A stretch of DNA of 64,000 nucleotides from Escherichia phage KEP3. Positions 3,260-3,687 of this stretch are shown in pieces. Location: sequence record PP047753, one strand, 5' to 3'. The translations under genes and the position numbers were made by a program. The notes beneath the pieces are model-generated. The model was not told the DNA's origin. It made no database searches and was given only the letters and a program-made list of their open reading frames with translations. Every line of letters starts with the position of its first letter. The first letter of the stretch is position 1.

Positions 3260-3380
3260 GAAAAATTTTAAAAATATTTTTGAAAAAACTGTAATGGAAC
3301 GGGCGCACGCGACTACCACAAAACAGAACTACAATCAAGAATTATTTTTCAATCCGCTACAAATTTTTCTCTTGACTTTT

Positions 3381-3411
3381 GGGGAGAGGGGGAGTAAGAG
3401 GGGAAGAGGGG
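3381..3411 (+). other. polypurine tract with four G4-5 runs (canonical G-quadruplex motif)
   Basis: GGGG-AGA-GGGGG-AGTAAGA-GGGG-AAGA-GGGG; unusual in this AT-rich genome. Confidence 0.5.
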
Positions 3412-3435
3412 CTTGGCTGGCTATCTATAAAAACC

Positions 3436-3614
3436 TACCTGCACAATTCTAAAATGATTTTTCTTGCCCGACCTGAGCGGGGTCTGCACGTTTTGAAAAT
3501 GAAAAAGCTCTTTGGAGATTACCTGCACAATTTGAAAATGAATTTTCTCTTTGGAGTTCAAAATTATCTCTACAGATTTCTCTACAGAACTCTACCTGCA
3601 CAATCCTAAAATGA
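3436..3614 (+). repeat. four copies of a 20-35 bp direct repeat (CTGCACAATTYTAAAATGA...) in noncoding region
   Basis: Copies at about 3436, 3483, 3519, 3592; the repeats create an apparent TTG-start plus-strand ORF. Confidence 0.55.
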
Positions 3615-3687
3615 AAAAACCCTCCTTACCTGAAAAATTTAACAGATAAGAAAGGCTTAGCCTATTGTGAATATTCTACAGAGTTTC

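Follow-up and report, generated by a model that had tools for sequence, protein, structure and literature searches.

A conserved four-repeat array in a gene-free island of Felix O1-like phages as a candidate iteron-like protein-binding element

What function might keep a stretch of DNA without genes conserved between two genes of a phage? This question is raised by an intergenic island of Escherichia phage KEP3 (sequence record PP047753), of which we analysed a stretch of 64,000 nucleotides, hereafter called the window. The window was assigned to Felixounavirus, the Felix O1-like myoviruses; by megablast it matches 240 phage records, with vB_EcoM_DE17 as the best match (99.3%). Felix O1-like phages are widely used in the typing, biocontrol and therapy of Salmonella and E. 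coli, and very little is known about how they control early transcription and replication. The island covers positions 3165-3687 (523 bp) and is flanked by the minus-strand genes 2784..3164 and 3688..4473. A preliminary description of the window had placed a noncoding island of 430 bp at 3260-3687; it was right that no gene lies there and wrong about the extent. It had further pointed to a G-quadruplex motif and to four direct repeats inside the island. Here, we argue that the repeats are the conserved element, and we tentatively propose that they form an iteron-like array of putative sites for a sequence-specific DNA-binding protein.

The repeat array and its conservation

The four direct repeats lie where they had first been noticed, at about 3436, 3483, 3519 and 3592. 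In minus-strand sense, repeat R1 (3595..3619) reads TTTTTT-CATTTTAGGATTGTGCAGG, R2 (3522..3546) AAATT-CATTTTCAAATTGTGCAGG, R3 (3483..3507), which is the most divergent copy, CTTTTT-CATTTTCAAAACGTGCAGA, and R4 (3438..3462) AAAAT-CATTTTAGAATTGTGCAGG. The sequence CCTGCACAATTCTAAAATGA is matched with at most two mismatches at 3438-3457, 3522-3541 and 3595-3614, and a fourth, more divergent copy is present at 3484-3502. At the same threshold, no match was found in 100 shuffles or elsewhere in the window. The copies are 65-85% alike. On the minus strand, the unit of about 33 nt is composed of a purine-rich 10-mer, A5 or T5, TCATTTY, six weakly constrained bases and GTGCA, which is followed by GGTA in the units of Felix- and Moogle-type phages and by TAGG in those of Kolesnikvirus and of a distantly related contig (L055). 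The motif is bipartite and non-palindromic, its centre of about 6 nt is unconstrained, and its A/T run can be either A5 or T5.

Motif searches in all lineages found the array in Felixounavirus, in Moogle/Susp-like phages, in Kolesnikvirus and in the distant relative L055. It always has one orientation and always lies just downstream of the macro-domain gene and its terminator. This gene (3688..4473, minus strand; 'phosphatase', T4 Tk.4-like; Pfam Macro with E=1e-7; PHROG 335) is found next to the array, on its upstream side, in all of these lineages, including L055, where the macro protein is only 37% identical. The array contains three to six units and, in most genomes, four. The start-to-start spacing of the units is 73/39/45 in Felixounavirus, 75/41/45 in Moogle-type phages and 37/37/39 in Kolesnikvirus, where they form a true tandem array. 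Three variants (L046, L068 and L172) have three units, and L055 has at least four (possibly five or six) in two clusters, with periods of 36 and 38.

To compare the array with its surroundings, we aligned the island and the neighbouring macro gene across relatives. The island aligns at 82-99% across Felixounavirus and at about 75% across Mooglevirus-type phages; in the Kolesnikvirus Erwinia phage phiEa21-4, the repeat zone alone is still alignable (74%). Within the Felix group, the 22-nt repeat cores are conserved at 97.2%, compared to 97.6% for codon positions 1+2 and 86.2% for codon position 3 of the macro gene. Between Felix and Moogle types, the cores (86.0%) are kept better than codon positions 1+2 (76.8%) and codon position 3 (55.6%) of that gene. 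These alignments point clearly to purifying selection on the 22-nt cores. Conservation in relatives, by which the preliminary description had proposed to judge the island, is thus found for the array, from Felix, Moogle and Kolesnik types to L055 and above the level of the neighbouring gene. A non-coding element whose conservation spans four or more lineages and exceeds that of the gene beside it provides a concrete handle on regulation in Felix O1-like phages. The array is not among the direct repeats listed in the genome papers and records of wV8 and Felix O1, and we found no description of it in the literature.

The array motif was not found in E. coli genomes, in plasmids or in the genomes of 185,579 bacterial species (one genome per species), and its occurrences in metagenomes are confined to Ounavirinae-like contigs, most of which are genome-sized (80-103 kb). 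Matches to a loose pattern in bacterial genomes and metagenomes turned out to be unrelated tandem repeats, and a host-derived element was rejected. Likewise, the idea that each repeat is a promoter was rejected, as neither a scanner nor inspection by eye found a consistent -35/-10 pair within the repeats on either strand. Informal comparison by eye with motifs for sigma-54, CRP, LexA, Fur, ArgR and OmpR, and with boxA, CRISPR repeats, type I restriction-modification sites, KOPS and several host small RNAs, gave only partial, non-recurrent matches. The 11-mer ATTCTAAAATG has four copies in the window. Three of these are located at the start regions of minus-strand early genes (3172..3162, 843..833 and 337..327), and the fourth lies inside R4 on the opposite strand (3446-3456); the sharing may be due to common ancestry, mimicry or chance in A/T-rich sequence.

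Insertion data are available for phage Bas63 (JohannRWettstein), whose annotated gene 96 (64142-64297) corresponds to the array. In this phage, the cores of the repeats begin at 64138, 64211, 64250 and 64295, and all possible SpCas9 cut sites in gene 96 fall within or between repeats. In all data sheets analysed from the PhageMaP barcode-insertion screen (bioRxiv 10.1101/2024.10.10.617714, supplementary data 2 and 3), gene 96 scores +0.24 to +0.98. The non-essential macro gene scores +0.6 to +1.1, and most values for DNA polymerase, DNA ligase and the major capsid protein are between about -1 and -2.7. Since gene 96 scores like non-essential genes, the array is dispensable, or at least insertion-robust, for lytic growth on laboratory E. 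coli. Judging from its conservation, the motif probably has some function that can be dispensed with in the laboratory.

A candidate protein-binding array in an early control region

We propose that the four repeats are a cis-acting, iteron-like array of putative binding sites of about 33 bp, which would modulate the terminal block of early genes. We give this reading a probability of about 0.4. Among the functions listed in the preliminary description, a regulator-binding array fits best. We infer that the array works as DNA because the A/T run occurs in either polarity (A5 and T5 forms are equivalent in duplex DNA but not in RNA), because the unconstrained centre places the two fixed halves about one helical turn apart, and because the layout is iteron-like. 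The binding protein could be phage-encoded or a host factor. The control region would comprise, in this order, the macro-gene terminator, the array, a polymorphic tract of non-B DNA, back-to-back promoter elements and a strong early promoter, which would drive the last block of small early genes (about 6-7 kb) toward the genome end. Occupancy of the array might tune transcription at this boundary or insulate it, possibly by stopping plus-strand transcripts that would otherwise enter the macro gene in antisense, or by modulating divergent promoters. Its role would be accessory and unneeded on laboratory hosts. If the array does bind a host or phage factor, it could reveal an early-to-middle switch or an accessory, host-dependent function.

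Several points weigh against this proposal. The argument from the alternation of A5 and T5 is no more than suggestive. No binding protein was identified, and a scan of ten neighbouring genes yielded no informative domains. For a simple operator, the distance of 180-380 bp between the sites and the canonical promoter is large. Three lineages have promoter-like elements directed at the array, so that it may be transcribed and a role at the RNA level is possible. Furthermore, insertion tolerance speaks for dispensability and is no positive pointer to any particular function.

We rate the array among conserved intergenic binding-site or iteron-like arrays. Like the iterons of lambda ori, mini-F RepE and P1 RepA, it consists of several direct, same-orientation, non-palindromic putative sites of about 20-30 bp in a unique non-coding region near A/T-rich DNA and promoters, and its bipartite motif with an unconstrained centre resembles the sites of monomeric two-domain binding proteins. 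It differs from them in its spacing, which is irregular and 36-75 bp instead of about 22 bp; it also has no known initiator gene and no skew signal, and it is dispensable in Bas63.

How is the array embedded in the island? On the minus strand, the order is the macro-gene terminator, the four repeats, the pyrimidine-rich complement of a G-tract, two promoter-like elements, a stretch of A/T only, the early promoter, and the 5' untranslated region with the ribosome-binding site of the next gene. The terminator (3614..3658, minus strand) is intrinsic and strand-specific. In minus sense, its stem (3620-3632 / 3643-3655) has a free energy of -20.3 kcal/mol (z -5.9) and is followed by U6, which is the combination of a stable GC-containing hairpin and a U-tract that characterizes Rho-independent terminators. 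In plus sense, the region reaches only -5.0 kcal/mol (z -0.7) because the stem uses G-U pairs. The U-tract (3614-3619) is also the A/T run of repeat R1. The same terminator is annotated in the records of wV8, XTG1 and ASO1B, and Moogle and Kolesnik types have other hairpins in its place.

Next to the array lies the G-tract GGGGAGAGGGGGAGTAAGAGGGGAAGAGGGG (3381..3411, plus strand), a polypurine stretch (30 of 31 bases) that is C/T-rich on the minus strand. The preliminary description had called it a canonical G-quadruplex motif and the only one of its kind. This holds exactly: neither strand of the window has another (G3+ N1-7)x4 motif, and none occurred in 100 shuffles. Folding with G-quadruplexes allowed gives an energy estimate of -23.8 kcal/mol for 3381-3411, compared to -7.8 kcal/mol without, and the tract is probably prone to form non-B DNA. 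By inspection, it also reads as a near-mirror repeat. The motif is, however, not conserved in relatives as would be expected of a functional G-quadruplex. The segment occurs as two alleles of the same length. Allele A, with the C/G tract, is found in the phage of the window and in Felix O1, wV8 and Moogle types. Allele B, which begins GGTGGGTGCAGGTGGGGATGTCGCC..., lacks the G-quadruplex motif, has the opposite purine polarity and is carried by 12 of 25 IMG/VR loci and by Bas63. In Kolesnikvirus, the C-rich stretch is shorter and contains no more than three G3 runs. Overall, conservation within the island is lowest between R4 and the plus-strand -35 box (67% within Felix and 49% in comparison to Moogle). 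The G-quadruplex motif therefore appears to be a real but dispensable spacer allele that lies outside the conserved functional core.

The G-tract overlaps the spacer and the -10 of a promoter-like element that faces the array on the plus strand (3371..3399), read from the sequence as TTGACT (3371-3376), 17 nt and TAAGAG (3394-3399). Its -35 is perfect and its -10 poor, with G at -7. The -35 and an A/T-rich stretch upstream of it are invariant across Felix and Moogle types, and the -10 varies with the allele: TAAGAG and TAATAG occur with allele A, TAGCCT with allele B. In Kolesnikvirus, the scanner detected a back-to-back promoter pair, with TTGACG-18-TATACT (10/12) directed into the array and TTGACT-17-TATATT (10/12) directed away from it. 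Plus-sense transcription of the array from such predicted promoters is plausible. A second promoter-like element (3310..3338, minus strand) reads TTGATT (3338..3333), 17 nt and TAGTCG (3315..3310), again with G at -7; its Moogle-type counterparts are TTGACT-17-TAGTTG, TATTCG and TATGTG. Both elements of the window combine a perfect or near-perfect -35 and a 17-nt spacer with a -10 of the form TAnnnG, and this pattern, with G for T at -7, recurs in Moogle-type phages (TAAGAG; TAGTTG, TATTCG, TATGTG). We found no Felixounavirus transcriptome in the literature; a table of reverse-transcription PCR results for Felix O1 follows a later numbering of the genes, which could not be matched to the island.

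The predicted early sigma-70 promoter of gene 2784..3164 (3231..3289, minus strand) has both hexamers, TTGACT (3259..3254) and TAATAT (3236..3231), 17 bp apart. It is conserved together with an A/T-rich upstream element, the UP-like stretch 3262-3289, which is 100% A/T, and it is annotated as a promoter in ASO1B. The 5' untranslated region of the gene (3165..3230, minus strand) contains a short hairpin (GGGAATAACCTTCCC) and the ribosome-binding site GGAG. Promoter and leader together belong to an early cassette that is present in three copies. To the left of the island, repeated 100-125-nt units of promoter, stem-loop and ribosome-binding site lie between small genes (22-146, 817-941, 2298-2422 and 2678-2802; and 325-465, 1371-1511 and 3160-3260), and among these cassettes only the island copy has the long A/T stretch. 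They match the 39- and 57-bp repeats of Felix O1 and DR_7/DR_9 of wV8, and we take them to resemble the PeSL cassettes of T4. The array shares with these cassettes that it consists of repeated non-coding elements in a hyperplastic early region, and the island's own promoter and leader belong to such a family. The array motif itself differs from them in sequence, is restricted to a single locus and is not a unit of promoter plus stem-loop.

Alternative explanations of the repeats

Could the array act as RNA instead? It might be the body of a plus-sense non-coding RNA that starts from the upstream promoter element, with four UGCAC-N6-RAAAUGA modules that bind a protein or an RNA. Such an RNA could serve as a decoy or sponge, imitate the translation-initiation cassette of the phage itself, or regulate the 3' end of the macro gene in antisense. 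We consider this explanation unlikely, although it has several observations on its side. Array-facing elements occur in three lineages (TTGACG-18-TATACT, 10/12, in Kolesnikvirus, TTGACT-17-TAGCCT in allele B and TTGACT-17-TAAGAG in allele A); the Kolesnik hexamers are the same in L054 and phiEa21-4 while the spacer differs, and in Felix as well as Kolesnik types the -10 is followed by a GAGGGGCT(T)GGCT stretch. R4 is identical at 11/11 nt to the start region of three early genes, and laboratory dispensability would fit an anti-defence accessory. However, the -10 of allele A has G at -7, there is no plus-sense terminator (the hairpin reaches only -5 kcal/mol on this strand), the A/T run alternates between A5 and U5, and the text of the Bas63 defence screen does not mention gene 96. 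Nor do the repeats behave as a structured RNA: the fold z-scores of the array are 0.03 in minus sense and +1.7 in plus sense, RNAalifold found no compensatory pairs on either strand (12 sequences, two groups), and the island has no Rfam match even at E up to 10. A structured RNA was thus rejected for lack of a stability signal or covariation, and a tRNA or known RNA family because none was found.

The closest known parallel for such an RNA are the antitoxin arrays of type III toxin-antitoxin systems (ToxI) and phage pseudo-ToxI. Like these, the array has tandem A/U-rich units of 36-45 nt, is part of a phage genome and is dispensable in the laboratory. In contrast to ToxI, whose 34-45-nt repeats are near-identical and accompanied by an endoribonuclease toxin gene, the copies here are about 65-85% alike and are neighboured by the macro-domain gene and genes of no assigned function, with no toxin gene, Rfam match or conserved fold. 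The ToxI query sequence was confirmed before alignment; as its similarity to the array was no better than to shuffles, ToxI mimicry was rejected.

Distinctly less probable is an auxiliary replication origin, in which the direct repeats would serve as iterons or as an unwinding zone and nearby promoters would prime or activate replication. Promoter-primed or promoter-activated origins are known from T4 (oriF and oriG), T7 (the primary origin) and lambda (ori). The layout is compatible with this: four same-orientation repeats, more than the three that would make an iteron array, lie in one unique non-coding region and occur once in the window, and they are accompanied by promoters and by the A/T-only stretch at 3262-3289, which can also be read as a promoter UP element. 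In Kolesnikvirus (L054 5864-5994; phiEa21-4, L005), each unit moreover holds a one-mismatch DnaA box (CTATGCACA three times and TTATGCACG once), all in the same orientation. The units of Felix and Moogle types, however, are three mismatches away from a DnaA box, with none at one mismatch or fewer in the repeats, and their spacing is irregular. As the DnaA-like boxes are confined to Kolesnikvirus units and come without a conserved site for integration host factor (IHF), a DnaA or IHF site was rejected as the common feature of the array. Furthermore, no initiator gene was recognised among the ten neighbouring genes, and the G-rich non-template polarity that favours R-loops is reversed in allele B. 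An essential origin, as the preliminary description would have allowed, finds no support: there is no GC-skew change at the island (3.3 kb), and the Bas63 array tolerates barcode insertions. The skew flips sign at about 33-34 kb and about 44 kb, where it tracks the switch in gene orientation. The origins of T4 and T7 are individually dispensable, so that the tolerance of Bas63 is compatible with an auxiliary origin.

We see only a slight chance that the island is a checkpoint or boundary for DNA entry, similar to the injection-stop region of T5, which would delimit a first-entering terminal block of host-takeover genes. The distance between the array and the direct terminal repeat (DTR) is 5-7.4 kb in Felix-, Moogle- and Kolesnik-type genomes, or about 7.6% of the genome, and the first-step segment of T5 is 7.9% of the genome. 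As in T5, a large untranslated repeat region lies about 8% from the genome end, is better conserved than the flanking open reading frames (ORFs) and adjoins a block of small early genes that varies; the promoter of the terminal block is on the terminal side of the array, and the Kolesnikvirus units resemble DnaA boxes. However, the array lies outside the long terminal repeat and has neither the large inverted repeats or palindromes of T5 nor its paired DnaA boxes (Felix and Moogle types have none and Kolesnikvirus has four single boxes). In L055, the array directly adjoins a DTR-like, TTAACA-rich region with no gene block in between, and insertions are tolerated in Bas63. We found no report of two-step DNA entry for Felix O1 or Ounavirinae in the literature. 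If such a checkpoint did exist, a myovirus subfamily that is unrelated to T5 would have genome entry or activation in stages.

Slimmer still is the chance that the G-tract is the functional element and the repeats are secondary. As a G-quadruplex or H-DNA tract, it would act as a supercoil-sensitive promoter switch or, on minus-sense RNA, as a Rho-utilisation or host-factor site. In favour of this are the uniqueness of the motif in 64 kb, its overlap with the plus-strand promoter element (spacer and -10), related C-rich stretches in Moogle and Kolesnik types, and the behaviour of assemblies, of which three independent ones break within the tract and a fourth ends 45 nt past it, as difficult non-B DNA would lead one to expect. 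Against it stand the low conservation of the segment, the only three G3 runs of Kolesnikvirus and the same-length segment of unrelated sequence that replaces the tract in 12 of the 25 related loci and in Bas63; the tract is thus not supported as the key feature. Nor is the C-rich tract supported as part of the leader of the downstream gene, as had been suggested, since the promoter of this gene (-35 at 3259) comes only after the tract; the tract could be a Rho-utilisation site only on RNA that reads through the terminator.

The assembly breaks themselves probably reflect trouble with sequencing or assembly at G-runs. The IMG/VR contigs L012 and L013 end inside the C/G tract, L013 running directly into a Nextera adapter, and L026 ends 45 nt past it. 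The GenBank record TH10 starts inside the tract and has a 74-nt circular overlap, and GenBank MT446388 (L036/L037) is among the public assemblies listed as ending in or just past it. A further contig, L021, is chimeric after repeat 3, with GC-rich, bacterial-looking sequence beyond. In short-read assemblies, breaks are thus to be expected at the G-tract beside the array.

Least probable of all is that a small protein is encoded by the repeats, or that they are neutral relics which deleted genes or cassettes left behind: ORFs are annotated over the array in wV8, Felix O1, Moogle and Bas63, and the flank is a gene-replacement hot spot, but the annotated ORFs differ in strand and frame, and neutral relics would not surpass codon positions 1+2 of the neighbouring gene in conservation. 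The plus-strand ORFs 3198..3452 and 3379..3609 had been taken for artefacts of the repeats, and rightly so, apart from the TTG start claimed for both, as 3198..3452 starts on GTG. The variable sites fall 13/16/9 into the three codon phases, without 3-nt periodicity. Indels of 2, 4 and 2 nt between Felix and Moogle types break the frames, as does a 2-nt deletion in wV8, the 37-nt units of Kolesnikvirus cannot remain in frame, and no Shine-Dalgarno sequence was found for ORFs over the array. Since frame, start and codon-position pattern are not kept among relatives, a small protein from the array was rejected. The conflicting annotations, namely wV8 gp13 (minus strand), Felix O1 ORF31-34 (both strands), Moogle gp115 (plus strand) and Bas63 genes 96/97, are spurious ORF calls.

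Genome ends and neighbouring genes

The contigs that end near the C-tract suggested a genome terminus or packaging site, which was also among the functions first proposed for the island. Both were rejected on account of the mapped Felixounavirus DTR, which is a different sequence outside the window, about 6 kb away. For UAB_Phi87, a DTR of 608 bp was determined by Bal31 digestion and run-off sequencing (PMC4837284), and the DTR sequence of UAB_69 is given in the supplement of PMC11350853; the UAB_69/UAB_Phi87 DTR sequence is absent from the window. In UAB_Phi87, the DTR is reached about 5.3 kb past the start of the matched region, and in Bas63 about 6.7 kb past the array. In Felixounavirus, it is packed with TGTTA/TTAACA motifs (Bas63 70975-71568, L164 20975-21568), some copies of which fit Davison's relaxed DnaA* boxes (TTATTAACA). 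The TTAACA-rich stretch that directly adjoins the repeats in L055 lies at 400-900 of that contig, compared to a separation of 5-7 kb elsewhere.

Downstream of the island, gene 2784..3164 (minus strand; PHROG 4495, without assigned function) is the first gene of the terminal early block. We compared this slot among the loci L011, L014, L015, L019, L023 and L033, Felix O1 and Moogle types. In different relatives, it is filled by one of three unrelated genes, whose products begin MAYRAPKF..., MASRKIKVGDEV... and MLYSRELMV.... The conserved island therefore borders a gene-replacement hot spot. Further to the left, the 101-aa product of 2405-2710 (minus strand) has a weak, sub-threshold match to the BRCT domain (E=0.004, 17.9 bits compared to a cut-off of 21.3).

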